A DNA stretch of 64,000 nucleotides from a plasmid: the NCBI RefSeq assembly GCF_056746865.1, contig NZ_JBWKMP010000003.1. One strand, 5' to 3'. The notes under the pieces were generated by a model, which saw only the letters and a list, made by a program, of their open reading frames with translations, was not told the DNA's origin and did no database searches. The position numbers and the translations under genes are program-made. Each line of letters opens with the position of its first letter. Position 1 is the first letter of the stretch. Below, piece by piece: positions 4,058 through 45,410 of the stretch.

Positions 4058-4075
4058 TTAGTTTTCTAACATAAA
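4058..4075. promoter_or_regulatory. operator-like motif copy (TTTTCTAACA core) upstream of the minus-strand repressor candidate
   Basis: One of about 14 copies of the core ATTTTCTAACA found across 10 intergenic sites. Confidence 0.4.
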
Positions 4076-4145
4076 AGTCCTGTGACAAATTTATGCTGAA
4101 TAACAAGGTGAGTAAAGGATAAAACCGCTTTTTTTTGATTGTTCC

Positions 4146-4161
4146 TATTAGAAAATGTAAC
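4146..4161. promoter_or_regulatory. operator-like motif copy (TATTAGAAAATGTAAC)
   Basis: Variant of the dispersed motif, in the regulatory region between the repressor candidate and lox. Confidence 0.35.
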
Positions 4162-4238
4162 CAGGAGCGGCTACCGCATGGCTGACGGATTTGCGAAGTG
4201 ATCTGGTCGGTGTTTTTTTGGGAAAAAAGTTCCGATTT

Positions 4239-4272
4239 CTAACTTTAAATAATTGGCATTATTTAAAGTTAG
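4239..4272. other. lox-like recombination site (34 bp: 13-bp inverted arms CTAACTTTAAATA, 8-bp spacer ATTGGCAT)
   Basis: Perfect inverted arms (15+4+15, or 13+8+13 in loxP layout). The arm matches the loxP arm ATAACTTCGTATA at 9/13 positions. Sits 150 bp upstream of the Cre gene, as loxP does in P1. Confidence 0.6.
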
Positions 4273-4423
4273 GCTATAATCTCCAGTAAACAGGCAGTAT
4301 TGACAAGGATGAAAAATCATGCCTCGAATCAAAGGCTTGAATTTTGAAAATTAACTTATAACTACCCTGTCAGTTTTCTATTTTTCACGTAGCGTTATCT
4401 GTATATAGAGGTTTAATAGTTTC

Positions 4424-5452
4424 ATGGGTGAACTAGTTATCTCCGGCGGTTCTGGTGGTTTTCTGCGCGATATTGGCACCGAATACCAGGAAGCTGCAAA
4501 AAACTTTATGCAGTTCATGAACGACCAGGGAGCTTATGCTCCAAATACGCTTCGAGATCTCCGTCTGGTGTTTCATTCCTGGGCGCGGTGGTGTAATTCG
4601 CGCCAGCGCCCCTGGTTCCCGATTACGCCGGAAATGGCCCGCGAGTATCTTCTCCAGTTGCATGAGGCCGATCTGGCCTCGACCACCATTGATAAGCACT
4701 ATGCCATGCTTAACATGCTGCTTTCGCAATGTGGCCTCCCGCCGCTGTCGGACGATAAAAGTGTGTCTCTGGCCATGCGGCGCATCCGGCGCGAAGCGGC
4801 AACGGAAAAAGGCGAGCGAACAGGCCAGGCTATACCGTTGCGGTGGGATGATCTGAAATTGCTCGACGTGTTGCTGTCCCGTTCCGAGCGGCTGGTGGAC
4901 CTGCGCAATCGGGCGTTTCTCTTCGTGGCATACAATACCCTGATGCGTATGTCAGAAATCTCGCGCATCCGCGTCGGAGATCTGGACCAAACAGGTGACA
5001 CTGTAACGCTGCATATTTCACACACGAAGACCATCACGACCGCCGCCGGACTTGATAAGGTGCTTTCTCGTTACACTACCGCCGTACTGAACGACTGGCT
5101 GGAGGTGTCCGGACTTCGAGAACATCCGGACGCGGTGCTATTCCCGCCAATACACCGCAGTAATAAGGCCAGAATCACGACAACGCCCCTTACTGCACCT
5201 GCAATGGAGAAAATATTCAGCGATGCCTGGGGGTTGCTGAACAAACGAGATGCCACGCCGAACAAAGGAAGATACCGGACGTGGACAGGCCATAGTGCGC
5301 GTGTTGGTGCGGCAATTGATATGGCTGAGAAACAGGTGTCAATGGTCGAGATCATGCAGGAAGGTACATGGAAAAAGCCCGAAACACTTATGCGATATTT
5401 GCGCCGTAGCGGGGCATCCGTTGGTGCAAATAGTCGCCTGATGGACTCATAA
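4424..5452 (+). CDS. cre: Cre-family tyrosine site-specific recombinase
   Basis: 342 aa. Long collinear matches to P1 Cre: LAMRRIRRE, RNRAFLFVAYNTLMRMSEISRIRVGDL, HISHTKT, WTGHSARVGAAIDMA, IMQEGTWKKPETLMRYLR. Catalytic R..HxxR..Y pattern is present. Confidence 0.9.
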   Translation: MGELVISGGSGGFLRDIGTEYQEAAKNFMQFMNDQGAYAPNTLRDLRLVFHSWARWCNSRQRPWFPITPEMAREYLLQLHEADLASTTIDKHYAMLNMLLSQCGLPPLSDDKSVSLAMRRIRREAATEKGERTGQAIPLRWDDLKLLDVLLSRSERLVDLRNRAFLFVAYNTLMRMSEISRIRVGDLDQTGDTVTLHISHTKTITTAAGLDKVLSRYTTAVLNDWLEVSGLREHPDAVLFPPIHRSNKARITTTPLTAPAMEKIFSDAWGLLNKRDATPNKGRYRTWTGHSARVGAAIDMAEKQVSMVEIMQEGTWKKPETLMRYLRRSGASVGANSRLMDS

Positions 5453-5468
5453 ATTAATTTTCTAACAA
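5452..5468. promoter_or_regulatory. operator-like motif copy (TTAATTTTCTAACAACC) just after the cre stop
   Basis: Near-identical to the copy after ref (25208..25229). Confidence 0.4.
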
Positions 5469-5498
5469 CCTTTTTAGACAGTGCATTTTAATGTAAAG

Positions 5499-5528
5499 TA
5501 CCCTCGCCTATTGCGGAGGGTACTTTGC
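5499..5528 (+). terminator. hairpin GTACCCTCGCCTATTGCGGAGGGTAC followed by TTTG
   Basis: 10-bp stem downstream of cre; the U-tract is short. Confidence 0.4.
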
Positions 5529-5869
5529 ACAATCGTATTACGGAATCAAAACGCTTCACTGTTGACGGTTACACCATAACCTTCACTGCGGGCGTTAAGC
5601 GCGACCAGGCGGTCGTGGTGTTCGGTGTTATGACCGGACTTGATGCCGTTCCCGTATTTACCCTCGAAAAAAACTGGCGAAATCTGGAGGAAGCTGAACG
5701 CTACGTCCGGAAAGTAACCGTCATTGCTGCTGAAAAACTCCTGGCCCACTATCAGGAAAATTATCGCGCTATGACCGAGAAAATTAACCATGTTTTCACT
5801 CGCCCCACCAGCGGCTTCATTGCCCCTGATGCGAATGCCGGGCGCTATCCGGCAAGGGGGCGCAAATGA
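5525..5869 (+). CDS. hypothetical protein (start uncertain)
   Basis: 114-aa ORF, first gene of a six-gene operon with 4-nt overlaps between genes. No recognisable motif. Confidence 0.4.
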   Translation: MHNRITESKRFTVDGYTITFTAGVKRDQAVVVFGVMTGLDAVPVFTLEKNWRNLEEAERYVRKVTVIAAEKLLAHYQENYRAMTEKINHVFTRPTSGFIAPDANAGRYPARGRK

Positions 5870-6354
5870 AAACTTACTACCCATCCCTGAACTGTTATCC
5901 AACCACTAATCCTGAGCTGTCAGGGAAACTTCTGTCCCTCCTGGCTGATAGTCCTGATGAATGGCATAAGCCTGGTGATATCAACACACAGTTCCCTGAG
6001 TACGGGTGTATCCGCACCCGAAATGAGCTGAAGAACCTCATTGCTCACGGTTTTGTCCGTCACCGTAGCGGGAAAGGCTATCAGTTGGCTATCCCACAAG
6101 GAGAGGCAAGAGAACTCTTTGGCTATCGAGAAAGCCAGACGCAAGCGCGGGTGATCGCAGAAATTATCCGTAATGGCAGCGTCTATGCCCGCAAATTCTG
6201 GCTGTCTGGCGGTGGTGATGCATCACAGTTCTTGCGTGCTGTGCGATCGCTGGAGGAACAAGGTGTTATCGAGAATACCTGCGTCTCCGTTCCGACCGCT
6301 CCGCATATCAAACGCCGGATTTATACATTTACCCGGAGAGCTAAAAAGCAATGA
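5866..6354 (+). CDS. hypothetical protein, possible winged-helix fold
   Basis: 162 aa. ATGA overlap with both the upstream and downstream gene. Confidence 0.5.
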   Translation: MKTYYPSLNCYPTTNPELSGKLLSLLADSPDEWHKPGDINTQFPEYGCIRTRNELKNLIAHGFVRHRSGKGYQLAIPQGEARELFGYRESQTQARVIAEIIRNGSVYARKFWLSGGGDASQFLRAVRSLEEQGVIENTCVSVPTAPHIKRRIYTFTRRAKKQ

Positions 6355-6845
6355 TTAACGTGAAAGTGAAACGCCTTCATCCGGCGGCAAAACTCCCCGT
6401 TTACGCCACCGCCGGATCGGCGGCGATGGATTTTGTTGCTGTTGAAATAACGCCGGGTATCGATAGCAACGGCGCTATTTCCTCAAGCTGGTGGGTGCAT
6501 ACCGGCCTCGCTATGGCGATCCCTCCTGGCTGGTGTCTGAAACTTTATCCTCGTTCCGGATTGGGCTGCAAAAAGCATACGCGCCTGGCTAACTGCGTAG
6601 GAATTATCGACTCCGATTATCGCGGTGAAATCAAAGCAAAACTGATTACAGATCCCGGTGGTGAAGGCGTTTGCCTCAAGCCAGGAATGGCGGTCATGCA
6701 AGGCATTTTTGAGCGTGTTGAACCGGTATCGCTGGTAGAAGTTGATGAACTCGATGAAACAGAGCGAGGTGCTGGTGGCTTTGGTAGCACATCGGAAGAC
6801 CGCATTGAAATCAAGCGTACACCGCTTCAGTACGCAAAGTTTTAA
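6351..6845 (+). CDS. dut: dUTPase (trimeric dUTP diphosphatase)
   Basis: 164 aa with the five dUTPase motifs in order: AGSAAMD, PRSGLG, GIIDSDYRGE, and C-terminal GxGGFGSTS. Confidence 0.85.
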   Translation: MINVKVKRLHPAAKLPVYATAGSAAMDFVAVEITPGIDSNGAISSSWWVHTGLAMAIPPGWCLKLYPRSGLGCKKHTRLANCVGIIDSDYRGEIKAKLITDPGGEGVCLKPGMAVMQGIFERVEPVSLVEVDELDETERGAGGFGSTSEDRIEIKRTPLQYAKF

Positions 6846-6859
6846 GTAGAGGAAAGGCT

Positions 6860-7510
6860 ATGAATAACATGCCAACGAAAGAGCTTTTTAAGTTCCTTCC
6901 CAAATACAAAGCTCACAAAAACGTTAGTGCATCGAAAATTAAAAATGTTGTTATTTTCGGAGTAACTGATGCCCCACTTTGGGGCTGCATCGAACTCGTT
7001 GAACCAAAAGGGGCAACAGTTTGTGTTGACGCAATGTTTTTACAAAAACACCGACCAAAAACTGGCGGGTATCTGATCGTTTATGAAAACGGTTATCTGT
7101 TCTATGCCCCGGAGAAACCATTTGAGGAATGCTATGGCCTGGTTAACGACGCCTCCAAAAATGGAACCACGGTCATCATTACGGATGACAACGGCGTGAT
7201 GATTAATCTTACTGGGAGCGTAACTATTTCTGCTGGTGGCATCACCACCCAGCAAGAAGAAATCGACCTTGAAGCAGCCGACTTCTCTGATGCGCTAATG
7301 TGGTTGAAGGAAGGCAAGAAAGTTGCCCGACGCGAGTGGAAAGGCGAAAAGCAATTCTGCTGGTTAGTTCTCGCTGGAAGCGTCAATTTACACGGCATTC
7401 ACGTTCCTTATGGTGACCATTTTGTATTGAAAGATGCACAAAATATGGACAGCGTTTGGTTGCCGTCTGTGGATGATTTACTGGCCTGTGACTGGTTTGT
7501 TGTGGAGTGA
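6860..7510 (+). CDS. hypothetical protein with a C-terminal DUF2829-like domain
   Basis: 216 aa. C-terminus FSDALMWLKEGKKVARREWKG...WLPSVDDLLACDWFVVE resembles the phage DUF2829 signature. Confidence 0.5.
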   Translation: MNNMPTKELFKFLPKYKAHKNVSASKIKNVVIFGVTDAPLWGCIELVEPKGATVCVDAMFLQKHRPKTGGYLIVYENGYLFYAPEKPFEECYGLVNDASKNGTTVIITDDNGVMINLTGSVTISAGGITTQQEEIDLEAADFSDALMWLKEGKKVARREWKGEKQFCWLVLAGSVNLHGIHVPYGDHFVLKDAQNMDSVWLPSVDDLLACDWFVVE

Positions 7511-7516
7511 TTTAAC

Positions 7517-8323
7517 GTGGAAAATACCAAGAACATTCAATATCGCTTGCGTAACGGCCTGCTGGTGGATGTAAACGATGATATGTCCCTGCCCTTTGCC
7601 ACCATTGAGCGAACCATCCTTACATACCTGGGCTTAGACGAAGAGTTAGATAGTGAGAATGGCATTGCTATCTGGCGTGACGGAAAAACGGGAGTCAGAC
7701 GTTTTATTACGGCAAGAGGCATTCAGTGCACACAGGAAGAATTGTTTGAACTGGCGCAGTCTTATGGATGCATCGCGTTAGATCCCCTGTATGACCCAGC
7801 CATAGCACAACAACTCATTCGAGAGCTGTCGCTTTCGGTCACGCCAATAATCTTCCGCCAGGGAACCTTAACCGGCACATGGCGTGTAGAACGCATCTCT
7901 AAATATCAGCCATATAATATCCATTTGAACGGCACTATTACTGGTGTGGATCAACCAGTAGCAGGTGAAAACAAAGACCTGGAACTTGCAGTAATGATGG
8001 CAGCTTGTCGCGTGCTTGGCCTGGGCAAGCAGATGTTTATCCATTTCCCAAACGGCGCGGAAGGCGAAGTAGAGCTGATTTCCTGCGACTTTTCCTTAAC
8101 CTGGATGCTTGATGAATTCCTGGACAAAACAGTATTCCGTGCTGAAGAACTGGATATGTATGTCACCTCAAGTATTCCTAATGACGTGAAAGTTGAGGCC
8201 ATCGCTACAGCCAGGGCGAAATGCCGTGCGGCGATTGCAGAACAGGCCAAAGAAGAACAGTCCGATGAAGTCGCGGCAGATGTGGAGGCAGAGGTAGCGG
8301 AGGATGCTGATGCTGACGCCTAA
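7517..8323 (+). CDS. hypothetical protein (GTG start, acidic C-terminus)
   Basis: 268 aa. Stop overlaps the start of the TerL-like paralogue by 20 nt. Confidence 0.5.
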   Translation: MENTKNIQYRLRNGLLVDVNDDMSLPFATIERTILTYLGLDEELDSENGIAIWRDGKTGVRRFITARGIQCTQEELFELAQSYGCIALDPLYDPAIAQQLIRELSLSVTPIIFRQGTLTGTWRVERISKYQPYNIHLNGTITGVDQPVAGENKDLELAVMMAACRVLGLGKQMFIHFPNGAEGEVELISCDFSLTWMLDEFLDKTVFRAEELDMYVTSSIPNDVKVEAIATARAKCRAAIAEQAKEEQSDEVAADVEAEVAEDADADA

Positions 8324-9410
8324 AAACATCACCGAATTACCAGAGTGGAGAGAGCTGGTAAGCAAATATAGCCATGACTGGGCATTAGCAGCAGAAGAGT
8401 TGATGGGTGTTAAGTTAACCCACCAGCAAAAGCTAATTGTTGAGGCGATTCAACAAAAAGGTTCAGCAGTCAGCGTCACCACTCCTGAAGGGATAGGCCA
8501 AAAGACGGTTATCGCTATAATTAGTATTCTTTATACAATCCTGATGCCTGAGTCTAAAACGGTTATTGTTTCCCCAAAGTTCTATAATTGTCGCAGGCAA
8601 GTTATCCAATACATAAGTACGTATTGGGATAGAGTCAGTAACAGAATCCCATTGCTGGGAGAATATTTTAAAGTCGACGGAAACGGCATCAATCATCGTT
8701 ACCGGGAATATTGGGGCTGCGAAATTAAGCCATATCACCGAAATTATGAGGAAGGTTTCGGTGGATATTATGCTGAACATCTTTTAATCATTGTTACGGA
8801 GGCGGCTCTTGCTGGCGATCGGCTATTCAGCATGTTAAGAGCATCGTTAGTAAGTGACGATTCACGTATACTTTTAATGTCCGCTCCTTCAGAGGAGGAG
8901 CATGGACACTTTTACGATTCCCATCATGGTCGTGCAAAATCAGAAGAAAATCCATGTGGTATTTATACAGCCATCAAGCTGAACGCAGAAGATACCCCCA
9001 TTATTTCACAAGGTTATCTTGATAACATTGCAGAAATATATGGTGGTAAAAACAGCGATTACTACCGTCGCATGATTCTTGGTGAGTTTCCAGGTATTAG
9101 GGAGGCTGTTCTTGAATCAGATATGCCGAAAACAATGCGCTTTTCGATGCCTGATGGTAGTGAATGGATAATGCCATTACGAGTGATAGCCCGGCATCAT
9201 GCACAGCACCACGCCAAAAAACATGGCGTTACAACATTGGAGTGGTTGAAATCGCACACCATTCCACTCTTCACTGCAGATCACAATGCTATCGTTGAGT
9301 GGGCAAAAACAATTCCGTGGGAGAATGTCGCTGAATACGCCCACATGCTAAAACCGCCGAAAGACAGGCAAGAAATTAGCTGGCTGACAGCAGAAAAAAT
9401 CATTGAGTGA
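8304..9410 (+). CDS. degenerate paralogue of the terminase large-subunit ATPase domain (no nuclease domain)
   Basis: 368 aa, collinear with residues ~40-300 of the pacB product. HQQKLIVEAIQQKGSAVSVTTPEGIGQKT aligns to HQQQQIIQSVQETGSRTTVTSGHGTGKSS, and YYAEHLLIIVTEAALAG aligns to EHAEHLLLILDEASGIS. The Walker A lysine is displaced (GQKT) and the Walker B Asp is replaced by Thr. The C-terminal 120 aa are unrelated to the nuclease domain. Confidence 0.7.
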   Translation: MLMLTPKNITELPEWRELVSKYSHDWALAAEELMGVKLTHQQKLIVEAIQQKGSAVSVTTPEGIGQKTVIAIISILYTILMPESKTVIVSPKFYNCRRQVIQYISTYWDRVSNRIPLLGEYFKVDGNGINHRYREYWGCEIKPYHRNYEEGFGGYYAEHLLIIVTEAALAGDRLFSMLRASLVSDDSRILLMSAPSEEEHGHFYDSHHGRAKSEENPCGIYTAIKLNAEDTPIISQGYLDNIAEIYGGKNSDYYRRMILGEFPGIREAVLESDMPKTMRFSMPDGSEWIMPLRVIARHHAQHHAKKHGVTTLEWLKSHTIPLFTADHNAIVEWAKTIPWENVAEYAHMLKPPKDRQEISWLTAEKIIE

Positions 9411-9445
9411 TAGTAGGAAGCCCGCCTGGTTGAGCGGGCTTCTTT

Positions 9446-13239: not shown

Positions 13240-13934
13240 TTTGCCTCCTGCGGCGGTTCTGGTAGCGGCATCCAGTGTGATGGTATCCACGACGCACCAG
13301 GTATTACCCACCCATCATTAGCGTCAGGATGCCCCGGGATGTAAGTCGCCCATTTCATTCGCCAGTCACCTTTCCTGTCAAACTCCCTGGCAACAAGAAC
13401 GGCTGTTTTGGTATCCGGCATTCGCTCACTACAGCTTATCCAACTATCCGGAATTACCGGATAGTTGCCCGACAGCTTGTTCAACTTGTAAGTCTGGCTT
13501 ACAGGTTTGGCACCATGAAGCATGGCGTCGCTCCGCTCTATGCCATCCAGCGCGATTCGCAGTGCCTGAATTGTGGTAGAGCTATCGTTTGGGGCTATTC
13601 CATATCGCTCGAATACAGCTAAATGGTTGCGCATAATCTCAGGCGTAAGCTCTTTGTAAGCATAAGCAAGAGACTCTGATGCATTATCCGGCACAACCGA
13701 CGCAAGCGCGGCAGCATAAACAGGAATAACGTCCACTTGCTCTTTATTGCTTTCATCCGTTAAAGCCCAGAATAATTTCCCGGCCGGATGTTTGAAAATA
13801 TAAGCAATTGGTTCTGCTTCCAGCGATGCCAGAGCAATTTCATACGACCGTCGCTCAATATTGTCTCGCACGTCCAGGCTGCTGATACGCTCTTTGATTT
13901 CTTTAATCAGTTCTTTGTCGGTTAAAGTGGTCAT
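13236..13934 (-). CDS. DUF551-like C-terminal domain protein (lambdoid accessory type)
   Basis: 232 aa. C-terminus GWVIPGASWIPSHWMPLPEPPQ fits the DUF551 W-x-LP-PP signature. Confidence 0.5.
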   Translation of the reverse strand: MTTLTDKELIKEIKERISSLDVRDNIERRSYEIALASLEAEPIAYIFKHPAGKLFWALTDESNKEQVDVIPVYAAALASVVPDNASESLAYAYKELTPEIMRNHLAVFERYGIAPNDSSTTIQALRIALDGIERSDAMLHGAKPVSQTYKLNKLSGNYPVIPDSWISCSERMPDTKTAVLVAREFDRKGDWRMKWATYIPGHPDANDGWVIPGASWIPSHWMPLPEPPQEAK

Positions 13935-18451: not shown

Positions 18452-19447
18452 TCAGTTATTGAACGTGATCACTCCGCGCTCGATGGCGAAGTCGAAAAGC
18501 TGGTTGGCGGCTACGTAAAGGCGTATGCCATGTGCTTTTTCCCATGCCCGGACATCGTTTTCTGCGCTTCTGGCGCATTCATCGCAAAGAGGAACGGCCC
18601 AGCGATCGTGTTCGTTTAACGAGCGGGCGCGGTACATGAACGGGTGATTAACTTTGCCTCCGCATCCGATGCACGGACGAGAAATCACAAACCGGAGATA
18701 AGCCGGGCTTTTACCGAGAACCGCTTTTGGTCGGCGCATATACAGCAGGCCGGAATCCTCATCTACAGACAGGTTGACGATCTGCTCTGCGGTTATGTCC
18801 ACCAGCTCACGGGTGCTGTGCTCCCAGGTGATATCCGATTCTTTCAGTGTGCCGGTAGGGATTTCCTGTTTTGGCTGACAAAATGCAATGCGACCGGCTT
18901 CATCTGGCAGCTCGTCTTTCAGATTCCGGCGAATGGCCCAAAAAGTGAGTTCAACCATGCTCAGATCGCGTTCTGGCGGTAGTTTTAACTCGCTCGCAGC
19001 CCAGTTCATAACCCAGTTGGCACGATTCAGGGATAACTGGTCATCCAGCTTGCCGTACCCCTTCATCATGTATTCCGCATCATGCTTCCAGCACAGGCGA
19101 ACGGCAGAGCCGTTATAGAAATGAGTGGTTAGCTGGTGGCTGCAATCGCGCTTATCGTGCGCCTGGCAATCGTGGATATTGGAACTTACCCAATGAACAA
19201 GCGAATCTTCACCGCCTAATGCGTTAAATACGCGCTCGCTTTGAAAAAATGCTTTCAGAGACTGGTTGGCAACCAGCGAATAGTTCAGATCCACTACGCC
19301 ATCTGGCGTGTTTTCAGCCTGTTCGCGCGGAAGTGGAGAGATAATGAAACGGCGACCTGCGCCAATGTAGTTGCTGGTGGGCTTGTCTACCGGAAAGACA
19401 GCCACACCAGCTCCGTTTACGAAATGAGGTGTGATTATTGCACTCAT
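18452..19447 (-). CDS. DUF968-family prophage protein
   Basis: 331 aa with multiple Cys/His clusters (CIGCGGKVNHPFMY, CDEC). Resembles the lambdoid YdfU-type proteins of this length. Confidence 0.55.
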   Translation of the reverse strand: MSAIITPHFVNGAGVAVFPVDKPTSNYIGAGRRFIISPLPREQAENTPDGVVDLNYSLVANQSLKAFFQSERVFNALGGEDSLVHWVSSNIHDCQAHDKRDCSHQLTTHFYNGSAVRLCWKHDAEYMMKGYGKLDDQLSLNRANWVMNWAASELKLPPERDLSMVELTFWAIRRNLKDELPDEAGRIAFCQPKQEIPTGTLKESDITWEHSTRELVDITAEQIVNLSVDEDSGLLYMRRPKAVLGKSPAYLRFVISRPCIGCGGKVNHPFMYRARSLNEHDRWAVPLCDECARSAENDVRAWEKAHGIRLYVAANQLFDFAIERGVITFNN

Positions 19448-19489: not shown

Positions 19490-19519
19490 TGTTAGAAAAT
19501 TAAAATCAATATTCTAACA
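19490..19519. promoter_or_regulatory. operator-like inverted pair TGTTAGAAAAT...ATTCTAACA
   Basis: Intergenic, between the phosphatase and the DUF968 gene. Confidence 0.45.
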
Positions 19520-19551: not shown

Positions 19552-20268
19552 TTACGGCTGGCCTCCCTTCACCTGCTTTAGCGTCAGATTTCCGCAAAAA
19601 ACCGCGCCAGTGTCTATGTAGTGCTGGTTCCAGAAAGATTTCGGGCTGTTTACTGGCGTATGCCCGAAAATAAAGCTATCTGCACCAGTGATCATTCCAC
19701 CAACACCATCAACCGCGTCATAAAATCGCTCACGCCGCCAGGTAACATTGAGATCGCTAACAGGTTTACCAAACTGGTATTCGTTATCAGGATAGTCGGC
19801 ATGGGCTATAACGATAGTTTCATGCCCGGTGTTCAACTCAATGATATAGGGTAAACGTCTTACCAGCTCCACCAGCGCCCTGGCTAATATTTCCCGATCA
19901 GCGTCCAGCATGAAGAACCATTGGCCGCCATTCATTAGCCAGTTATTCACGTTGCCTGCGGGGCTTAACGCATCGATCATTAATCGCTCGTGGTTTCCCA
20001 TAACCGACCGAAACCAGGGCATCTGCAATAGCTCCAAGCATTCAACATTTTCGGTGCCGCGATCGATAAGGTCGCCAACCGATATCAGTAAATCCTGTGT
20101 CGGGTCAAAGTCCACACGATGAAGTTCAGACATCAATCTGGTGTAGCAACCATGCAGATCACCAACAACCCATATGTTTCTGTAGCCTGAACCATCAATA
20201 CGGCCATATAAATTCACTTCATGCAGCGCCTGGGTCATGCGGCAACCTTCTCCCGCAGCCAGATACAA
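19552..20268 (-). CDS. Ser/Thr protein phosphatase (lambda PPase-like metallophosphoesterase)
   Basis: 238 aa with GDLHG, GDLIDRG and GNHE motifs in calcineurin-fold order. Confidence 0.85.
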
Positions 20269-24564: not shown

Positions 24565-24596
24565 GTGTTAGAAAATCAATTTTGATTTTCTAACAC
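24565..24596. promoter_or_regulatory. 32-bp near-perfect palindromic operator GTGTTAGAAAATCAATTTTGATTTTCTAACAC in a divergent promoter region
   Basis: 15+2+15 palindrome built from two copies of the dispersed TGTTAGAAAAT motif. Lies between the leftward accessory operon and ref. Confidence 0.55.
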
Positions 24597-24640: not shown

Positions 24641-25216
24641 ATGAAGCAAAGCTATTGGGAGAAACAGACACAAAAAGCCCTGCAAAAACTGGCTGATCCG
24701 AAATGGCGGGAGGAACAAAGGGCAAAGCGTCTTCAGCAAGCTCAACGCCAGCAGCAGCGTGCGCGAGAAAAAGCCGCATCGCCTGAATATCGGCAAAAGA
24801 AAATTGAAAAAGCGAAGCAATATGAACAGCGAAGAAAAGAGAAGGCCGCTTCTGCTCCTGTCAAAAAAACTCGCGCGTCACGCGGCCTGAAAGGCAGAAC
24901 ACTCACAGCAGATGAGCGCCGGATACAAACTGCCATCGGTGCTCTCCCCTGCATTGCCTGCCATATGCACGGACAGCATAGCCCTGTGGTATCCCTGCAC
25001 CACATCTTCGGGAGAACAGCAGAAAACGCGCATAAATACGTCCTCCCTTTGTGTAAATGGCACCATCAACACGCAGCGCCAGCAGAGATCCGCGAGCAAT
25101 ACCCCTGGTTGGTTCCTGTTCATGCTGATGGAAAAATAGGCGGCAAAGCAGATTTCAGGCGGCACAATGCTGATGAAATGACGTTGTATCAGATGGTGAC
25201 TGAATTAATAAATTAA
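24641..25216 (+). CDS. ref: Ref-like HNH endonuclease (P1 recombination enhancement function type)
   Basis: 191 aa from MKQSYWEK (a TTG-initiated extension is also possible). Highly basic, disordered N-terminus. C-terminal Zn/HNH-like pattern LPCIACHMHGQH...LHHIFGR...CKWHHQH. Located downstream of the operator, in a P1-like context. Confidence 0.5.
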   Translation: MKQSYWEKQTQKALQKLADPKWREEQRAKRLQQAQRQQQRAREKAASPEYRQKKIEKAKQYEQRRKEKAASAPVKKTRASRGLKGRTLTADERRIQTAIGALPCIACHMHGQHSPVVSLHHIFGRTAENAHKYVLPLCKWHHQHAAPAEIREQYPWLVPVHADGKIGGKADFRRHNADEMTLYQMVTELIN

Positions 25217-25229
25217 TTTTCTAACATTT
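25208..25229. promoter_or_regulatory. operator-like motif copy (TAAATTAATTTTCTAACATTTT)
   Basis: Near-identical to the copy after cre. Confidence 0.4.
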
Positions 25230-25715: not shown

Positions 25716-25828
25716 GAAAACACACAGTTGCGCCCTGGCATTATCGTGGGGTATATTTCTACGGCACCTTAGAAAAACGGGTGCCGGGATTGGAACCCCG
25801 GATAATGTCAAAGGCGACACAGACGCCG

Positions 25829-25855
25829 AACGCGTCTTTTTTTGTGTCATGCCAT
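25829..25855 (+). terminator. rho-independent terminator (GACGC-CGAAC-GCGTC plus T7)
   Basis: 5-bp GC stem followed by TTTTTTT. Confidence 0.45.
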
Positions 25856-25879: not shown

Positions 25880-26020
25880 CTCAGAGATCAATGGTAGTGC
25901 TGGCTGGGCTGCCGAAAGGCAGGCCGGTTCCCTTTGACGCCGGTAGTTCCAACCCAGTCAGTGCTACCGCCATTGAGATTGGAACCTCACGCGGTAGCTC
26001 CTTAACTTAGTCAAAGGAGG
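25880..26020 (+). ncRNA. candidate c4-like antisense RNA region upstream of icd/ant-like genes
   Basis: Non-coding 150 bp with a tRNA-like TAGCTCAGAG...GGTAGTGC segment. Mutually complementary short elements (GGTTCC/GTTCCAACC versus GATTGGAACC x2) sit upstream of the icd-like start, as for P1 c4 a'/b' pairing with ant mRNA. Confidence 0.25.
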
Positions 26021-26028: not shown

Positions 26029-26244
26029 ATGGCTACTATCCCTACCCCAACTCATTCTGAATTTATCTGGCGTTTCTATTCCTGCCAAAAACACCTTTAT
26101 ATCTGCGTAATGGCTGCTACCGAAGCAGAGGCGCGCTCATACCTTCCCGAAGAACCCTGCATTTTTGCTGCTCGCTTCACTCTTGATGCGATGGAGATCC
26201 TCAATTACTGGAATCTGCCAATGAACTGCGTGGAGGTGCACTGA
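26029..26244 (+). CDS. small ORF overlapping the antirepressor start (P1 icd-like position)
   Basis: 71 aa with GGAGG RBS. Its stop overlaps the ATG of the Ant-like gene (TGATGA). Confidence 0.4.
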   Translation: MATIPTPTHSEFIWRFYSCQKHLYICVMAATEAEARSYLPEEPCIFAARFTLDAMEILNYWNLPMNCVEVH

Positions 26245-27185
26245 TGAATCTGTCCATCTCTCAAAAAGCGACAATGACCAGCATTGAGATCGCGGAACTG
26301 GTAGGAAGTCGCCCAGATAGTGTGAAGAGAACTATCGAAACACTGGCTAAAAAGAGTGTGATTCAATTTCCACAATCTGTGGAAATTGAAAATAAACAAT
26401 CAGTTGGCCCTCGTCGATTTTCCAAGGCTTACATCTTTGAAGGCGAACAAGGAAAACGAGACAGCATCATTGTCGTCGCGCAGCTCTCTCCGGAATTTAC
26501 CGCCCGGCTGGTGGACCGCTGGCGCGAACTGGAGAATGCCCGGGTACAGTTAAAATCCAAAGCCGAAATCCTGGCCGAAATGGCGCAAATGCATCTTGAG
26601 CATGAACGCCGGATCAACGCCGTTAATGCCCAGGTAGCCGAAGTATCGGCACAAGTGTCCAGGGTCACCGAAACACTTGAGCAGATCAAGAAAGGCAATA
26701 TTCCAGAAGGCTACATTGGCTATCGCCAGTTGGCGGCAAAATGCGGCCTGACTGAAGCCAAATGCCGCAACCTGGTCAACGCTTACCGGATACCCACTGA
26801 TACGCATGAGTTTTTAACTCCCGACGGTTTGCTTGCGCGACGCTCCATTGTGGCCCTGGCCCCCTTCCGGAAAGCCTTTAAGCAGGTTATGTCGGAGGCA
26901 GAACCACGTAACAAACGCTGGTATCATCCCAGGATGGGGCTATTTCAGGCCATTCACCATCCTGTGCCTGAAAGTCCAAAGGCAAACCTGTCGTTGCATA
27001 CCGCCAGAGAGAAGATTAAAACAGGGTATGCAACCGTATGCCGTCGAGCATCCTGGCCTGAAAGTGTCTGGGTATGGCCCGAAAGAGGCTCACGGAAAAA
27101 CTGGCGCACCATTCGCGACGGCAAGATCTGTGCGATTGATTTACAGCCAGAAGATGTAGCAGCGACCGACTGGATTGTTAGTTAA
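26244..27185 (+). CDS. Rha-family phage regulatory protein / antirepressor-like
   Basis: 313 aa. N-terminal TMTSIEIAELVGSRPDSVKRTIETLAKK resembles the Rha/Ant N-domain; there is a central coiled coil. Confidence 0.5.
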   Translation: MNLSISQKATMTSIEIAELVGSRPDSVKRTIETLAKKSVIQFPQSVEIENKQSVGPRRFSKAYIFEGEQGKRDSIIVVAQLSPEFTARLVDRWRELENARVQLKSKAEILAEMAQMHLEHERRINAVNAQVAEVSAQVSRVTETLEQIKKGNIPEGYIGYRQLAAKCGLTEAKCRNLVNAYRIPTDTHEFLTPDGLLARRSIVALAPFRKAFKQVMSEAEPRNKRWYHPRMGLFQAIHHPVPESPKANLSLHTAREKIKTGYATVCRRASWPESVWVWPERGSRKNWRTIRDGKICAIDLQPEDVAATDWIVS

Positions 27186-27193
27186 TAGATTTG

Positions 27194-35904: not shown

Positions 35905-35911
35905 CAAAATG

Positions 35912-35956
35912 CAAAACTGTGTTAGATAATTGAGTTTTATTTTCTAACACAGTTTT
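35912..35956. promoter_or_regulatory. 15-bp perfect inverted repeat CAAAACTGTGTTAGA...TCTAACACAGTTTTG carrying the TCTAACA operator motif
   Basis: 15-nt spacer; sits directly upstream of rdgC. Confidence 0.45.
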
Positions 35957-35963
35957 GCGAAAC

Positions 35964-39905: not shown

Positions 39906-39914
39906 ATTCCGGCG

Positions 39915-40985: not shown

Positions 40986-41075
40986 CGAAGTCAGCCTCAA
41001 AGTGGAACCAGACACAAAACAGCACCACAACAACACCGTTTTGGTACTAAAAGAGCACCAAATTAGAACCATAAC
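40986..41075. repeat. centromere-like repeat block upstream of the parFG-like operon
   Basis: AGCCTCAAAGTGGAACCAGACACAAAACAGCAC and AACAACACCGTTTTGGTACTAAAAGAGCA, homologous to the units at 39800..39905. Confidence 0.4.
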
Positions 41076-41080
41076 AGTAT

Positions 41081-41106
41081 AAAAAAGGCTGCAAATTGCA
41101 GCCTTT
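41081..41106. terminator. hairpin AAAAAAGGCTGCAAATTGCAGCCTTT terminating the minus-strand parMR operon
   Basis: 8-bp stem with a T6 tail on the minus strand. Confidence 0.5.
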
Positions 41107-41121
41107 GAAGATGTAGATTTG

Positions 41122-41487: not shown

Positions 41488-41497
41488 GGCAACCTCA

Positions 41498-42454
41498 TCA
41501 ACCGATAGATTTTAGACCATAGACAAGAGCAAGTTGTGGATCATCAGCAACGAAAAACCTATCGTCACGAATGTTTACCTGCTCACGGATAGCATCAGCA
41601 ACAAGCGGCGCGCCGCCACCAATGACCATAACATGCGTGTATCCTTTGAAATCACTGATCACATCCAGTACGCGTGTACGGAGTCGTTCTATGCTTGACG
41701 AAATGGCTTTCTTAACATCATCAATAGCAGACGGATCGTTAATATTGTCGGTCAAATAATCCTCATCATCACGATTAATGATTAATTGATCGACATTATA
41801 ATTAGAGGTTTCGGTATTCGCTTTTGCAAGTGCCTGTCTGACCTCTTTAGTTACCAGCGAAACGCCGAGATTAGAATCGCCAAATACGCGAGAAACGGCG
41901 GTCATTTGCCCGGCGACCATCGACACATCCAGAGTAGTCCCACCAAGATCAACAATAAGCACAGAATGCGCTGGCACAAGGCTGTCGCACAGACCGATCC
42001 CTGCGGGTATTGACTCCGGGCGCACAGTCACTTTTTTGATAGTAAAAACCTGACCTTTGTTAAGGGTGACTGGTCGCATCAGGCTGGCCTTTTTCCGCTC
42101 AATATTTTTCATGTTGTATTGTGCGTCGTCGTCATAAAACTCTGCCAGTGGCAACGTGACAACTATTTCCACTTCTTGAGGCTCAATGCCACTTGTAAGC
42201 AGGGCATGATGAACAGCAAGCACATTAAGCGGGCTGTATTGCCATTCAACGTTATTCGTCGGCAGCACATCCGGCGAGATCAAGTCATATGAATATTTTT
42301 CGTCATCAATGATGTAGTTAAACGGCTTTCCTGCGCCAAATGTGGCGGACCATCCACGTTTAAAACTGTTCGGACAGATATGGGTTCGAGTTTCCCCGTC
42401 TTGTTCCCACAGCATTTTGATATTGGTAGAACCATCGTCGATAAAAATGCGCAT
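41498..42454 (-). CDS. parM: ParM/StbA actin-like segregation ATPase
   Basis: 318 aa from MMRIFIDDGSTNIKM (GGAG RBS), matching the ParM N-terminus (FIDDGSTNIK). Further actin-fold phosphate motifs VLIVDLGGTTLDVS and MVIGGGA. Confidence 0.8.
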   Translation of the reverse strand: MRIFIDDGSTNIKMLWEQDGETRTHICPNSFKRGWSATFGAGKPFNYIIDDEKYSYDLISPDVLPTNNVEWQYSPLNVLAVHHALLTSGIEPQEVEIVVTLPLAEFYDDDAQYNMKNIERKKASLMRPVTLNKGQVFTIKKVTVRPESIPAGIGLCDSLVPAHSVLIVDLGGTTLDVSMVAGQMTAVSRVFGDSNLGVSLVTKEVRQALAKANTETSNYNVDQLIINRDDEDYLTDNINDPSAIDDVKKAISSSIERLRTRVLDVISDFKGYTHVMVIGGGAPLVADAIREQVNIRDDRFFVADDPQLALVYGLKSIG

Positions 42455-42539
42455 CATATTGCTCCACTTCTGAGACACATTTGAGAAAGAATTGAATTTT
42501 ATATGAGAAAACAAAATAAGACCAGAAGTTAGATAGCGT

Positions 42540-42680
42540 AAAAAGCATCAAACAAGAGACGTAAGAGAGACGCAAAAGAGACTTAGATGATACATGATGT
42601 ACCCACGATACCCGTTTGAGACAAATCAGAGACAAATGTGAGAAGTAAGAAATCTGAAGAGTGAAAATCACAAAGTGGAG
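42540..42680. repeat. parC-like iteron array (about 8 copies of (A/T)GAGAC(A)AA(T)) in the divergent region upstream of parM
   Basis: AGAGACGTAAG, AGAGAGACGCAAA, AGAGACTTAGA, TGAGACAAATC, AGAGACAAATG, TGAGAAGTAAG and others. Confidence 0.4.
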
Positions 42681-42706
42681 AAGATTTAAGAAAAAGGAGG
42701 TGTTAG

Positions 42707-42991
42707 ATGAGTGCAATAGCGACCAGTGACACAGTTTGTTCTGGTCATGGAGGATTCCCTCCGCGACCTGTAGCAGAAACAGTTTCCTGGTTTACCGTAA
42801 ATGGAAAGCCAGTGGTTGTAGATGGGGGAGCGTTCCCCAGCCATACAGACGGAAATAGCGCGCACCCCGGATCAGCCGTATCGACGCGCTCATGGTTTGC
42901 AATAGGCGGGAAAGGAGTTGTTTGTGTGGGAGATCCCCTTTCTTGTGGCTCAGTCATCGCCAATGGTGAGGCAATTTTTCAGGTGTCATAA
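42707..42991 (+). CDS. PAAR-like spike-tip protein (tentative)
   Basis: 94 aa with repeated small hydrophobic/Gly motifs and conserved Cys/His (CSGHGG...SHTDG...HPG...GDPLSCGSVIANG). Confidence 0.35.
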   Translation: MSAIATSDTVCSGHGGFPPRPVAETVSWFTVNGKPVVVDGGAFPSHTDGNSAHPGSAVSTRSWFAIGGKGVVCVGDPLSCGSVIANGEAIFQVS

Positions 42992-43785
42992 TGCTTGATT
43001 CAATCGCTGAAGTTAATGCATTCAAAATTCTAAATGCATCAGGCACAACTACGCCTGCATCTATCACGCTAAGTAAAACAGCGTCATCCAATGCCAGTTC
43101 TCTGGAAGAGAATATCCAGGCTCTTATCCTGAAGGATAAAGCATACCCGGCGTCGGTGGTTTCATGGGTCAATCAGCTTTCTGTCTTTTCAGAACAACTG
43201 AAAACTGTCAGTGCAGAAGCAACCAATTTAGCCGACTCGCTGTCTCCGTATACTTCGCCAACTGAATTACTTCAGATGAAAATTGGCTGGGAATGTTACG
43301 TCAAAGGTAATGAGTTATCTCCTGCGCCAGAATTTGCTCTCGTAACAGTTATGGGAGATACCCTGCATCCGCAATCGCTTATTGACGCGTTGGCAGCATT
43401 TGAACTGGTGCCAATCACTTCAGCCATGACCGCTATAAATGCAAAAGTTCAGGCGTCAAGCGGGGAGGCTTCAGGCAACGGAAGTTCCACCGGAACAACA
43501 CAGCAACCAGCACTAACAGAAGAAGAGATCAAAGCACTAAAAGACGCTGTGGAAGCAGCAACAGAACAAATAAATGCAATAAACAACACGAGCAGTAGTC
43601 TCTCAACACTTGTACAGCAAGTTAAGGACTCTACCGGAAAAGCCAAACAGGGACTGGAGAATGCTGTAGCTATTACGTTAACCGGTTCTCTACTGGGCGA
43701 TGAAGTAATGAGTCCGGCAATCAGTTTGATCATGCCACAAGGTGTGATCGATGCGCTCCAAAACAACACTAAAAAGGAACCATAA
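42991..43785 (+). CDS. hypothetical Ser/Thr/Ala-rich protein
   Basis: 264-aa ORF with overlapping stop and start with the upstream gene. Confidence 0.45.
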   Translation: MLDSIAEVNAFKILNASGTTTPASITLSKTASSNASSLEENIQALILKDKAYPASVVSWVNQLSVFSEQLKTVSAEATNLADSLSPYTSPTELLQMKIGWECYVKGNELSPAPEFALVTVMGDTLHPQSLIDALAAFELVPITSAMTAINAKVQASSGEASGNGSSTGTTQQPALTEEEIKALKDAVEAATEQINAINNTSSSLSTLVQQVKDSTGKAKQGLENAVAITLTGSLLGDEVMSPAISLIMPQGVIDALQNNTKKEP

Positions 43786-43855
43786 CCACACCATTTAAGC
43801 CCATAAATGGTTACAAATTGGTACACATATCACACCAACAAAAAATCTGAAGAGG

Positions 43856-44314
43856 ATGGTTTTGAAAAAGATAATTTTGATAGTAGTTGCGCTTTTAGCC
43901 ATTTATGGAATTTACCGTACTACGGCGGCAGTTATCGATCACATCAGGTATATCCGTTCCCTGGAAGACTCAAAATCACAACTTGAAAGCGAGAACAACA
44001 CGCTTTCTACCGCATTGCAGTTAAGTGAAAAATCGCGATCTGCCATGATGGCTGAAAACGAAAGAATTAAAACACTGGAGAAGGAGTACCAGCGCAAAAC
44101 AGCAGAACTGAATACCAGCCTGATCAAACAACGGGAGGAAAGCCAGAATGAAATCAATCGTCTTGAAACTGCGTTACGCAATGCCGGGGTTAATGATGTG
44201 CGTGTGCCTGATGACGTTATCAGGATGCAGCGGGAACGGGCAAAAGAAATCAATCAGCGTGCCAATGCAAATTACCGTAGAAGCCACCAGCAAACCGCAG
44301 GGAAATCTGATTGA
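43856..44314 (+). CDS. i-spanin (Rz-like; N-terminal TM helix plus periplasmic coiled coil)
   Basis: 152 aa. TM segment IILIVVALLAIYGIY followed by a charged heptad-rich region. Confidence 0.55.
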   Translation: MVLKKIILIVVALLAIYGIYRTTAAVIDHIRYIRSLEDSKSQLESENNTLSTALQLSEKSRSAMMAENERIKTLEKEYQRKTAELNTSLIKQREESQNEINRLETALRNAGVNDVRVPDDVIRMQRERAKEINQRANANYRRSHQQTAGKSD

Positions 44315-44528
44315 TTATACCCCTTGCATAGTGCCAGAGGACACGCCTGTGCTGTTAAACAAGTATCCGGCATACACTGAACAGTTATTCAGCACTATCG
44401 ATGAATGCAACCAACGAAACGCACTGAATAACCAAAGGAATAGGGAGATTTGGGAAGGGAAGGGGGTTAAGGCTCCTGAAGCCAGATGTCCTGGCTGTCA
44501 GCTTCTTCGAAACCGTGACAGACGTTAA
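44148..44528 (+). CDS. o-spanin (Rz1-like lipoprotein) in +1 frame, overlapping the 3' part of the i-spanin gene
   Basis: Lipobox LMTLSGC. Starts inside the Rz-like gene and extends past its stop (overlapped architecture). The start could be at the internal M at 44184. Confidence 0.45.
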   Translation: MKSIVLKLRYAMPGLMMCVCLMTLSGCSGNGQKKSISVPMQITVEATSKPQGNLIDYTPCIVPEDTPVLLNKYPAYTEQLFSTIDECNQRNALNNQRNREIWEGKGVKAPEARCPGCQLLRNRDRR

Positions 44529-44949
44529 AGTCACTCAAGCGATACTGGCGCTGACGGCCTCTATTTCGCTCATGCCAATGCATATATCCACCAGCAAATG
44601 CCAGCGGACAATCGCTATAGTCGATGTAGCCAATACCATTACCCAAACGCGCTTCGCGCGCCCCGGCTTTCCAGGACAGCAGAAAAGAGTCACGATCTGC
44701 CAGCATGACTACAAAATCATCCAGATCGCCTATGCAGTGAAGAATGCCTGCCTTGCATAACTGTTTGAGTGCCTTGGACTGACTCAGGATGTCTTCACCG
44801 TAATACTGAAAACAATCATCAACAATAGCGGGATAGCCAGCGGGTGGATTCAGGCTGGTTGGTATAGCTGACGCGATAGCCAGCATTAAACGATATTGTG
44901 TTTTCGATGGGTTCGCGTGACTCATGTTTCCTCTACTCACTGTCTCCAT
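44467..44949 (-). CDS. hypothetical protein
   Basis: 160-aa ORF. Confidence 0.4.
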   Translation of the reverse strand: METVSRGNMSHANPSKTQYRLMLAIASAIPTSLNPPAGYPAIVDDCFQYYGEDILSQSKALKQLCKAGILHCIGDLDDFVVMLADRDSFLLSWKAGAREARLGNGIGYIDYSDCPLAFAGGYMHWHERNRGRQRQYRLSDFNVCHGFEEADSQDIWLQEP

Positions 44950-45329
44950 GCATTTTTCAGCTCCGGAATATCAGCCATTTCAACCAGCTTCCGAAGCCCC
45001 GCGCTGACCTTCCCATTACCAACCGCAGCAAGCCAATCCCTTACTGACTTCGGCATATAAAGAGTGGTCGTTACAGGATCTTCCACTCTTACAGGCGTGC
45101 CAATTTGAGGCCACTTAACAGATGCCAAAACGTCAGAAGGCGGGGTAAGCGCGGGAACATTAAGAATAGCCTTTCCTGAATGGAGAATCACGATTCGTTC
45201 AGCCAGGGAAAGAATGTCTCTTTCAGTAAGGATTGATGACAGTTGAGCTTCTACAAGGCATCTGCTGCTTGTATTCAGAGAATGGCTTTTAGCACCATTT
45301 TTGTATGAAACGAAGATCTTGTACGCCAT
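44937..45329 (-). CDS. hypothetical protein
   Basis: 130-aa ORF. Confidence 0.4.
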   Translation of the reverse strand: MAYKIFVSYKNGAKSHSLNTSSRCLVEAQLSSILTERDILSLAERIVILHSGKAILNVPALTPPSDVLASVKWPQIGTPVRVEDPVTTTLYMPKSVRDWLAAVGNGKVSAGLRKLVEMADIPELKNAWRQ

Positions 45330-45330
45330 T

Positions 45331-45410
45331 TGTTCTAATGTTTTATGTTAGAAAATTAAGATTAAACCATACTAACACAAGATTGTTAACGAAAATTATT
45401 TTTCTAATGC
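45331..45410. promoter_or_regulatory. cluster of four operator-like half-sites (TGTTCTAATG, TGTTAGAAAATTAA, CTAACAC, ATTTTTCTAATGC) in a divergent promoter region
   Basis: Same core motif as the other dispersed sites. Lies upstream of the head-protein candidate. Confidence 0.4.

Follow-up and report, generated by a model that had tools for sequence, protein, structure and literature searches.

The plasmid DNA analysed here (a stretch of 64,000 nucleotides, the window) carries a short word that recurs between its genes, and the question this raises is which factor reads the word and which genes are thereby controlled. A sequence-only reading had listed ten such sites and proposed a repressor regulon. 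The window comes from a D6-like plasmid prophage related to phage P1, and the motif is predicted, with a probability of roughly 0.85, to be the operator of the element's own C1 repressor.

A recurring word in non-coding DNA

The core ATTTTCTAACA has seven exact matches in the window against 0.07 expected, a count reached by none of 100 shuffles, and 14 matches with at most one mismatch against 1.48 expected. Extension of the 11 best sites gave an asymmetric 17-bp site, A-N-N-T-T-A-ATTTTCTAACA, with the consensus AAATTAATTTTCTAACA, an information content of about 21 bits and TTCTAACA as its most conserved bases. A position weight matrix finds 12 sites of at least 14 bits in the window, against 0.53 in dinucleotide shuffles; because the matrix was trained on the same sites that it scores, this enrichment is circular, and the non-circular test is the counts of exact and one-mismatch cores. 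The strong sites number 11, at eight loci (Table 1). At three loci they form inverted pairs with an identical spacing of 19 bp, in which the AT-rich ends of two inverted 17-mers overlap by 4 bp, giving a 30-bp bivalent operator.

All eight locus centres are non-coding, in a window of which 11.8% is non-coding (P ~4e-8), and the only core-like matches within genes (at 13789, 48360 and 51848, one mismatch each) are about the number expected by chance. Enrichment and restriction to non-coding DNA confirm that the motif is real, and bear out the earlier claim that it is essentially absent from genes.

Not all of the ten listed sites survive alongside these 11. The match at 4231-4245, read as abutting a lox site, is rejected as an operator: it scores 8.5 bits, a level with about 9.5 shuffle matches per window, runs into the left arm of rox at its first bases, and is not conserved in D6. 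Of four half-sites proposed at 45331-45410, one is strong and one weak (Table 1), and the other two fall below chance level. A further match, absent from the earlier list, at the end of ant is conserved in D6 over its coding part only, with a GC-rich terminator hairpin following, and is probably fortuitous.

Table 1. The c1 gene, rox and matches to the motif in the window; operators are predicted
Feature	Position	Strand	Score (bits)	Context
c1, master lytic repressor, 345 aa	3006..4043	-		predicted binder of the motif
c1-proximal operator GATTTAGTTTTCTAACA	4055..4071	+	23.0	end 12 nt from c1 ATG; read towards c1, TGTTAGAAAAC
c1-distal operator GGTTACATTTTCTAATA	4146..4162	-	16.3	inverted relative to the proximal site, 91 bp centre to centre
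rox, for Dre	4240..4271			exact reverse complement of canonical rox
Monovalent operator AAATTAATTTTCTAACA	5451..5467	+	27.6	on dre stop codon; precedes rightward operon 5525-9410 (orf117-like, dut, isaA-like)
Bivalent operator	19490..19519	.	26.9 (19490-19506); 22.8 (19503-19519)	between ppp-like 19552-20268 and pdcB-like 18452-19447, both leftward (Pfam Metallophos and DUF968)
Bivalent operator	24566..24595	.	26.0 (24566-24582); 25.3 (24579-24595)	divergent spacer, leftward orf88-like operon and ref (~24641-25216)
Monovalent operator	25210..25226	+	27.6	on ref stop codon; heads immI-type unit: isrK-like RNA, C4 RNA 25887-25974, icd, ant 26244-27185
Doubtful match AAATCTATTAACTAACA	27176..27192	-	14.8	last codons and stop of ant
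Bivalent operator	35920..35949	.	21.9 (35920-35936); 24.0 (35933-35949)	precedes hrdC and methylase genes
Monovalent operator	45346..45362	-	25.8	divergent spacer, leftward orf52-like 44937-45329 and major capsid gene 23 (45489-47186)
Weak candidate site AAATTATTTTTCTAATG	45393..45409	+	13.7	partly conserved in D6; uncertain

The element, its repressor and the conservation of the sites

By sequence identity the recombination module consists of dre and rox, not of cre and lox as had been labelled: the recombination site is identical to the annotated D6 site, and the recombinase is 94% identical to D6 Dre. The element, for which a comparison with SSU5-like elements had been suggested, resembles D6 (MF356679, AY753669) and is not SSU5-like. 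D6 and D6-like plasmid prophages have the gene order of the window, and D6 carries the motif at the same positions, with some operator pairs degenerate; its records annotate rox and cix sites and no operators. In D6-like elements lxc is reported to be absent (PMC6799933). The rest of the closest complete plasmid, NZ_CP104667.1, has the motif before lpa, repL, a second icd-ant unit and pmgR/S, and this replicon type holds 22 sites of at least 12 bits; sites beyond the window are taken from this 98.7%-identical plasmid, not from the replicon itself.

The minus-strand product put forward earlier as a repressor is identified by homology as C1. It is 80% identical to D6 C1 and a distant homologue of P1 C1 (21% identity, E 1e-7), with which it has phrog_1678 in common. 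The precomputed Pfam family of its homologues is PF27008 Phage_P7_repressor_C1, and its AF2 model has a pLDDT of 81.6. The c1 allele of the window is a distinct variant, about 80% identical to that of D6, and two alleles dominate in IMG/VR.

Across 34 related loci, with C1 proteins 43-100% identical, the offsets of the motif are constant. In 33 of the 34 the c1-proximal site has an offset of -28, and the site after the recombinase gene keeps its offset in all 34 loci reaching it, and in D6. Over seven lineages (C1 identity 43-100%) the spacer upstream of c1 has a mean identity of 54%, and its only invariant blocks are the two operator sites (TGTTAGAAAA in the proximal, TTTTCTAA in the distal); on this alignment they stand out as phylogenetic footprints from spacers that have otherwise diverged, and the proximal one is the predicted autoregulation site of c1. 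D6 also conserves the 19490..19519 pair, TGTTAGAAAA of the 45346..45362 site, and both the operator and the promoter hexamers at 25210..25226. The core is unchanged across C1 proteins only 43% identical, and therefore repressor and operator do not covary within the clade.

A core that stays invariant while C1 diverges to 43% would also fit a shared host factor or a conserved phage protein. The sites could then bind a second phage regulator (e.g. of the Rha/Ant type, with an HTH) or a host nucleoid or global regulator, with C1 acting elsewhere. We consider this very unlikely, as P1 lives in the same host and has a different word at the orthologous positions, one that is a proven C1 site. In every lineage the putative c1 promoter is flanked by two sites, as autoregulation predicts, and the best-conserved part of C1 is its N-terminal 245 residues, the conserved core of the family. 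Among E. coli regulators, the motif is not known to fit the consensus of LexA, CRP, IHF, Fur or DnaA.

The palindromic copies could instead be RNA hairpins, serving as terminators or processing sites, with the single copies as their decayed halves. The palindrome at 24565-24596 is flagged as terminator-like (a 14-bp stem, then TTTTGAT), and the hrdC pair is nested in a longer palindrome (35911-35958) in which 19 of 20 arm positions pair and the flanks covary, with six compensatory pairs in 25 contigs. These covarying parts are, however, the flanks of one locus only, and neither the 8-nt centre nor the core covaries. Most loci are single asymmetric sites that are unable to fold, and these are conserved as strongly as the pairs. 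The stems are AT-rich, and in D6 the ref pair keeps its left half while its right half has decayed without compensation. Of the explanations considered here, hairpins are the least probable.

Promoters and the proposed mode of control

The putative c1 promoter, TTTACT-17-TAAATT (4088..4116, minus strand), matches the consensus at 8/12 positions and lies between the two c1 operators, with both hexamers conserved in six of the seven lineages. Four bivalent operators have a hexamer resembling a -35 element at their centre. The centre of the 19490..19519 pair provides TTGATT in a candidate TTGATT-17-TATTTT, a leftward TTGATT-17-GATACT is found at 24566..24595, and the 25210..25226 site ends 8 nt before TTGAAT-17-TACATT. 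These putative promoters were assigned by a looser 8-of-12 rule; a strict sigma-70 scan gives no strong promoter on most sites.

The genes behind the sites include ref (Pfam RecA_dep_nuc, 6e-36), hrdC (RdgC; Pfam 1e-100) and, in the unit behind 25210, a true C4 antisense RNA (77 bits, Rfam C4). The 45346 site had been placed before the head genes, but gene 23 carries a late-promoter-like box of its own, which makes the leftward orf52-like operon the more plausible target of the site. When compared with the motif, the box of P1 late promoters, CAAGTGACT, proved unrelated.

The -35-like TTGAT(N) at the bivalent centres, together with TGTTAGAAA, which resembles an extended -10, might suggest that the motif is a positive element, an early-promoter module common to the sites and recognised by RNA polymerase or an activator. 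This is less probable still than a different binding factor. The sites face either way with respect to the gene downstream, and their distances from it vary, with those of c1 and pmgS between promoter and ribosome-binding site, that at 25210 upstream of the -35, and both the 5451 and 25210 sites on stop codons. In addition, the most conserved bases are not promoter hexamers, and the site architecture copies that of P1 operators.

Under C1 control, the repressor would in a lysogen occupy the sites and block transcription. Its targets in the window would be c1 itself, the operon after dre, two leftward early operons, ref, the C4-icd-antirepressor unit, hrdC with the methylases, and the orf52-like operon; beyond the window they would be the late-gene activator lpa, the lytic replication gene repL, the second icd-ant and pmgR/S. 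At bivalent sites, with a -35-like centre and one half-site in the promoter spacer, C1 would occlude RNA polymerase, whereas at c1, and in the related plasmid at pmgS, the site lies past the putative promoter and ahead of the ribosome-binding site. On induction an antirepressor would inactivate C1, so that all units fire together, and Lpa would then switch on the late genes. If this is true, the motif marks the genes silenced in lysogeny.

Relation to Tus-Ter, lambdoid and P1 immunity systems

For the AlphaFold models of two C1 proteins the sole structural match is E. coli Tus (Foldseek E ~1e-7), and C1 is predicted to share the fold of this replication-terminator protein, with TM-scores of only 0.34-0.45. 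Sequence comparison of C1 with Tus gave no convincing similarity (hhalign probability 0.4-11%; Pfam Ter family without match). The Ter core GTTGTAAC is absent from the C1 motif, and a possible likeness between Ter and the motif, TATGTT..AA..CTAAA, requires a gap. Nothing in the analysis points to replication-fork arrest.

As in lambdoid CI/Cro systems, the repressor would shut lytic promoters and regulate itself. Lambdoid repressors are HTH dimers acting on symmetric operators clustered at two sites, whereas here there are many dispersed asymmetric sites and the predicted binder is a non-HTH protein.

The closest parallel is P1, whose C1 binds 22 dispersed asymmetric 17-bp operators and controls RepL and Lpa (PMC8546580). 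The P1 record annotates C1 operators, derived by experiment, ahead of c1, ref, mat (on the ref stop), c4-icd-ant, kilA-repL, rlf (which directly follows repL), hrdC-dmt, pmgR/S and lpa, a list that is not exhaustive. At the positions orthologous to these, the window, D6 and the remainder of NZ_CP104667.1 carry the motif. The pair at 24566..24595 is the counterpart of P1 Oref, and that at 35920..35949 of Odmt, which precedes uhr-hrdC-dmt; P1 Omat lies on the ref stop, like 25210..25226, and Oc4 heads c4-icd-ant. Common targets are c1, ref, the ref stop codon, C4-icd-ant, repL, lpa, hrdC-dmt and pmgR/S. Both systems use asymmetric 17-bp sites (21.0 bits here, 19.9 in P1) in about 22 copies per ~92-kb replicon (22 in P1 by its own matrix), and both mix monovalent sites with overlapping inverted pairs.

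There are also differences. The bivalent span is 30 bp with a 4-bp overlap here and 28 bp with a 6-bp overlap in P1; C1 here bears at its C-terminus an additional helical region of about 100 aa, absent from P1 C1; the D6-like element has two icd-ant units; and the P1 targets ssb and ban have no counterpart. Between c1 and rox lie about 195 bp, whereas in P1 the spacer from c1 to lox is about 700 bp long and holds coi, imcB and imcA; no credible coi-sized ORF was noticed on viewing the shorter spacer.

The word itself is different, as the sequence-only reading had noted. The P1/P7 C1 operators (ImmC; Op/O sites) have the consensus ATTGCTCTAATAAATTT, to which the motif has no significant similarity (best matrix correlation 6.98, null mean 7.35). 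In a cross-scan of the two matrices neither finds the other's sites, and cross-recognition is not predicted. Homology, position, conservation and specificity thus support the dispersed C1-type immunity regulon first proposed from sequence, and from them we infer that C1 binds the sites. The system is a relative of the known P1 C1 regulon, with a different operator word.

A D6-like plasmid prophage and its C1 repressor

The first 12 kb of the window share 81-85% identity with phage D6 and up to 99.5% with ~90-kb E. coli plasmids, and have the D6-like gene order pacA, pacB, c1, recombination site, recombinase. Reading the sequence alone had led to a lox/cre label for the last two, which was not borne out, as the site is an exact rox and the recombinase is 94% identical to Dre of D6. 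The element is therefore a P1 relative, a plasmid prophage of the D6 type. Such prophages are common among E. coli and Salmonella, and the window has matches in hundreds of plasmid records. A near-consensus sigma-70 promoter, TTGGCA-16-TATAAT (11/12), lies mostly within rox and is directed at dre. The Chi sequence GCTGGTGG is present in 42 copies in the window (1.9 expected), and is the top 8-mer in related loci too.

The protein encoded by c1 has 80% identity to C1 of D6, and 21% identity over 241 aa to C1 of P1 (BLASTP, E 1e-7). The window and P1 proteins both match phrog_1678 (6e-159 and 3e-140), and homologues carry the precomputed Pfam assignment PF27008, Phage_P7_repressor_C1. By these sequence matches, the protein is a homologue of P1/P7 C1. 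The family is small, with 87 clusters (50% identity) in a set of 1.84 billion representatives. A scan of genome contigs found no C1 relatives.

A probable asymmetric operator word and its distribution

The core ATTTTCTAACA occurs in seven exact copies in the window, against 0.07 expected, and in 14 copies when up to one mismatch is allowed (1.48 expected). When the best sites are aligned, conservation extends six bases upstream of the core, giving the 17-bp asymmetric motif AAATTAATTTTCTAACA, which carries 21 bits. A matrix built from the 11 best window sites finds 12 sites of at least 14 bits in the window and 0.5 in shuffles, and the tally for the window is 11 strong sites and two weak ones. 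All eight strong loci lie entirely within the non-coding 11.8% of the window (P about 4e-8), while core-like matches within genes are one-mismatch only and about as numerous as chance predicts. The recurrent, dispersed intergenic motif proposed by the sequence-only reading is therefore real, its frequency being lower both in coding and in shuffled sequence. The inverted pairs at 19490, 24566 and 35920 all have a start-to-start spacing of 19 bp and a 4-bp overlap of the two 17-mers. Some of the sites originally listed did not hold. The one placed at 4231-4245 lacks conservation, overlaps rox and has a score no better than chance, and of the four half-sites seen at 45331-45410 one, perhaps two, are credible, with two of them rejected or downgraded. 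A further match, absent from that list, falls on the codons for the C-terminus of the antirepressor (27176-27192) and was also downgraded.

C1 of P1 binds 22 dispersed asymmetric 17-bp operators and controls RepL and Lpa (PMC8546580). Operator positions were taken from the annotated P1 record. As the window is ~70% of the replicon, the remainder was scanned in NZ_CP104667.1, the closest complete plasmid (98.7% identical), along with the whole of D6. The window and this remainder together hold 22 motif sites of at least 12 bits, and the P1 matrix likewise finds 22 sites in P1. Beyond the window, more pairs occur ahead of lpa and below pmgS. Position by position, the sites match the P1 annotation (Table), and the targets common to P1 and the D6-like replicon are c1, lpa, repL, c4-icd-ant, ref, hrdC-dmt and pmgR/S. 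The immI-like unit suggested after 25210 was recovered, with a C4 antisense RNA (Rfam, 77 bits) followed by icd and ant; directly 5' of the C4 RNA there is a match to the isrK family of Hfq-binding sRNAs (61 bits). With a homologous repressor, corresponding positions and ~22 copies, the dispersed sites mirror the C1 regulon of P1, as had been proposed. The observed motif is confirmed and its reading as a dispersed C1-type regulon is supported by sequence comparison; C1 binding to the sites and repression of the adjacent promoters are predictions.

Features of the window and of the remainder of the replicon, with P1 counterparts
Feature	Position	Context	P1 counterpart
c1	3006-4043 (-)	predicted repressor of the motif sites	c1
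C1 extension	3006-3300	C-terminal third of C1
Sites 4055 and 4146	4055, 4146	both sides of putative c1 promoter	Oc1a-e
AATAACAARGTGAGTA, copy 1	4099-4114 (+)	c1-rox spacer
rox	4240-4271	exact match to Dre rox site	lox
Sigma-70 promoter	4253-4280 (+)	mostly within rox
dre, recombinase	4424-5452	94% identity to D6 Dre	cre
Site 5451	5451
Pair 19490	19490
Pair 24566	24566	upstream of ref	Oref
Site 25210	25210	on stop codon of ref; heads unit with C4 antisense RNA, then icd and ant	Omat; Oc4
isrK-family match	25764-25842 (+)	immI-type unit
C4 antisense RNA	25887-25974	unit behind 25210
hrdC palindrome	35911-35958	gene 5/hrdC junction
Pair 35920	35920	upstream of hrdC (RdgC, Pfam 1e-100) and methylases	Odmt
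Site 45346	45346
AATAACAARGTGAGTA, copy 2	45420-45435 (+)	just 5' of major capsid gene 23
Motif pair	NZ_CP104667.1 remainder / D6	just 5' of lpa	Olpa
Motif	NZ_CP104667.1 remainder / D6	just 5' of repL	OrepL
Motif	NZ_CP104667.1 remainder / D6	between repL and second icd-ant unit	Orlf and Oc4
Motif	NZ_CP104667.1 remainder / D6	5' of pmgS and below pmgS	OpmgR and OpmgT
Second inverted repeat	3340-3400 of the locus taken from NZ_CP104667.1	5' of repL

Conservation, putative promoters and the nature of the sites

Conservation was followed in 34 further loci with a c1 homologue, from IMG/VR contigs (32) and three assemblies reached via proteins of 50, 48 and 43% identity. In all of these loci the motif has constant positions: downstream of the recombinase gene, 5' of lpa, around pmgS, and at -28 and about -120 relative to c1. 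In an alignment of the c1-upstream spacer from seven lineages (mean identity 54%), no blocks other than TTTTCTAA and TGTTAGAAAA are invariant. They flank a conserved TTTACT-17-TAAATT, which we infer to be the c1 promoter. The core stays the same over the whole range of C1 identity, from 100% to 43%, so covariation of repressor and site is no test within the clade, and P1 provides the sole contrast. That another conserved factor, rather than C1, binds the sites is disfavoured, because P1, which shares the host, has its proven C1 sites at matching positions.

Possible modes of repression are suggested by the hexamers near the sites. In four bivalent operators, i.e. two inverted, overlapping 17-mers (pdcB-like, orf88-like, icd number 1 and lpa), TTGAT(N) occupies the centre and a plausible -10 hexamer follows 16-17 bp downstream, so that one half-site would fill the promoter spacer. 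The 25210 site ends 8 nt 5' of TTGAAT-17-TACATT, and both site and hexamers are kept in D6. At c1 and pmgS, the site would be placed between promoter and RBS. The two c1 sites are inverted and 91 bp apart, which recalls the C1-mediated looping reported in the autoregulation of P1. We infer the promoter assignments at the operators from such hexamers; strict scans for sigma-70 promoters and for terminators were uninformative at most of the sites. Downstream of the repL operator, a second inverted repeat, ACAGTGTG-TTTTTAT-ACACTGT, follows directly (NZ_CP104667.1).

Two other identities for the motif were considered. An Lpa-dependent late-promoter box is excluded, as the -22 boxes of P1, CAAGTGACT, are unrelated to it. 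A separate 16-nt repeat, AATAACAARGTGAGTA, does resemble CAAGTGACT, and both of its copies may therefore be Lpa-dependent late promoters; the copy in the c1-rox spacer shares bases with the putative -35 of c1 on the opposite strand. RNA hairpins, the other alternative, cannot explain single asymmetric sites, and in the D6 ref pair one half has decayed without compensation. The hrdC bivalent operator lies within a palindrome with 20-bp arms. Across 25 viral contigs, the sequences that flank its cores differ yet stay complementary, with compensatory changes in six pairs, and the 8-nt centre varies freely. Such a compensatory flanking palindrome is missing at the other bivalent operators, and suggests an added hairpin function for the hrdC pair at the gene 5/hrdC junction.

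Tus, the replication terminator, binds an asymmetric site as a monomer and represses its own gene via TerB, a site just 5' of its start codon. TerB and the proximal C1 operator share one orientation, and they end 10 nt and 12 nt, respectively, upstream of the start codons of tus and c1. In P1-like and D6-like phage-plasmids, C1 may be a structural relative of Tus and act as a monomeric clamp on long asymmetric sites. The dispersed 17-bp operators would then be Ter-like sites that serve to silence transcription, and Tus would have an ancestor in common with this small repressor family; we put this reading at a little under even odds. That bound operators act as orientation-dependent barriers to replication or transcription is far less probable again. 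Since the C1 models are predictions and have low TM-scores against Tus (0.34-0.45), the resemblance is a lead. At the sequence level a link is weak or absent: the Pfam Ter family did not match C1 at E up to 10, and hhalign against Tus gave a probability of 0.4% with a 9-sequence profile and 10.7% (138 columns, E 0.003) with the 87-member C1 family profile. A literature search found no connection between C1 and Tus. If confirmed, the link would explain, for the first time in structural terms, why a monomeric C1 recognises asymmetric sites, and hint at the origin of the taxonomically restricted Tus. Of all these findings, the Tus-like predicted fold and the covarying hrdC hairpin most deserve further study.

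A literature search whose reach did not extend to the D6 genome paper (Gilcrease and Casjens, 2018) found no paper on operators of D6 or D6-like elements, and none with the motif string. The GenBank records of D6 annotate rox and cix, not operators. Priority for the description of these operators is therefore uncertain.

Predicted immunity specificity in comparison with P1 and P7

The window motif does not match the P1 operator consensus, ATTGCTCTAATAAATTT, a difference already noted from the sequence and upheld here. In the D6-like replicon the P1 matrix reaches at best 11.1 bits, with no sites of at least 12 bits, and each phage's matrix misses the sites of the other. No offset or orientation gave a similarity between the two words above column-shuffled controls; TCTAA and an AT-rich tail are common to both, but imply opposite orientations. 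Given the mismatch to the P1 matrix, the element would have the same kind of system in a different specificity group: on sequence grounds, a P1-type C1 regulon of known kind with its own operator word. As in P1, a homologous C1 goes with ~22 asymmetric 17-bp sites, arranged as both monovalent and bivalent operators, and the targets are shared. The geometry differs by 2 bp, bivalent pairs spanning 30 bp in the window versus 28 bp in P1 (Oc1ab, Obanab). The c1-rox spacer is ~195 bp, far below the ~700 bp in which coi, imcB and imcA lie in P1, and for a D6-like plasmid the absence of lxc has been reported (PMC6799933). At its C-terminus, D6-type C1 is extended by a helical region of ~100 aa, which P1-type members do not have and which is missing from most of the 87 representatives of the family (250-285 aa). 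This extension might stand in for the missing partners Lxc and Coi, or give C1-C1 contacts at paired sites.

The operator word gives a predicted silent regulon of the lysogen. Predicted to fire on induction are lpa, repL, the two antirepressor units, ref, hrdC with the methylases, and several uncharacterised operons. Practical handles could include operator decoys, reporters and native-context control of the widely used Dre/rox module. The word would set these elements apart from P1/P7 as an immunity group of their own. Since even widely differing C1 alleles go with an unchanged core, the C4/antirepressor units are probably where D6-like elements differ in immunity, as is the case between P1 and P7.
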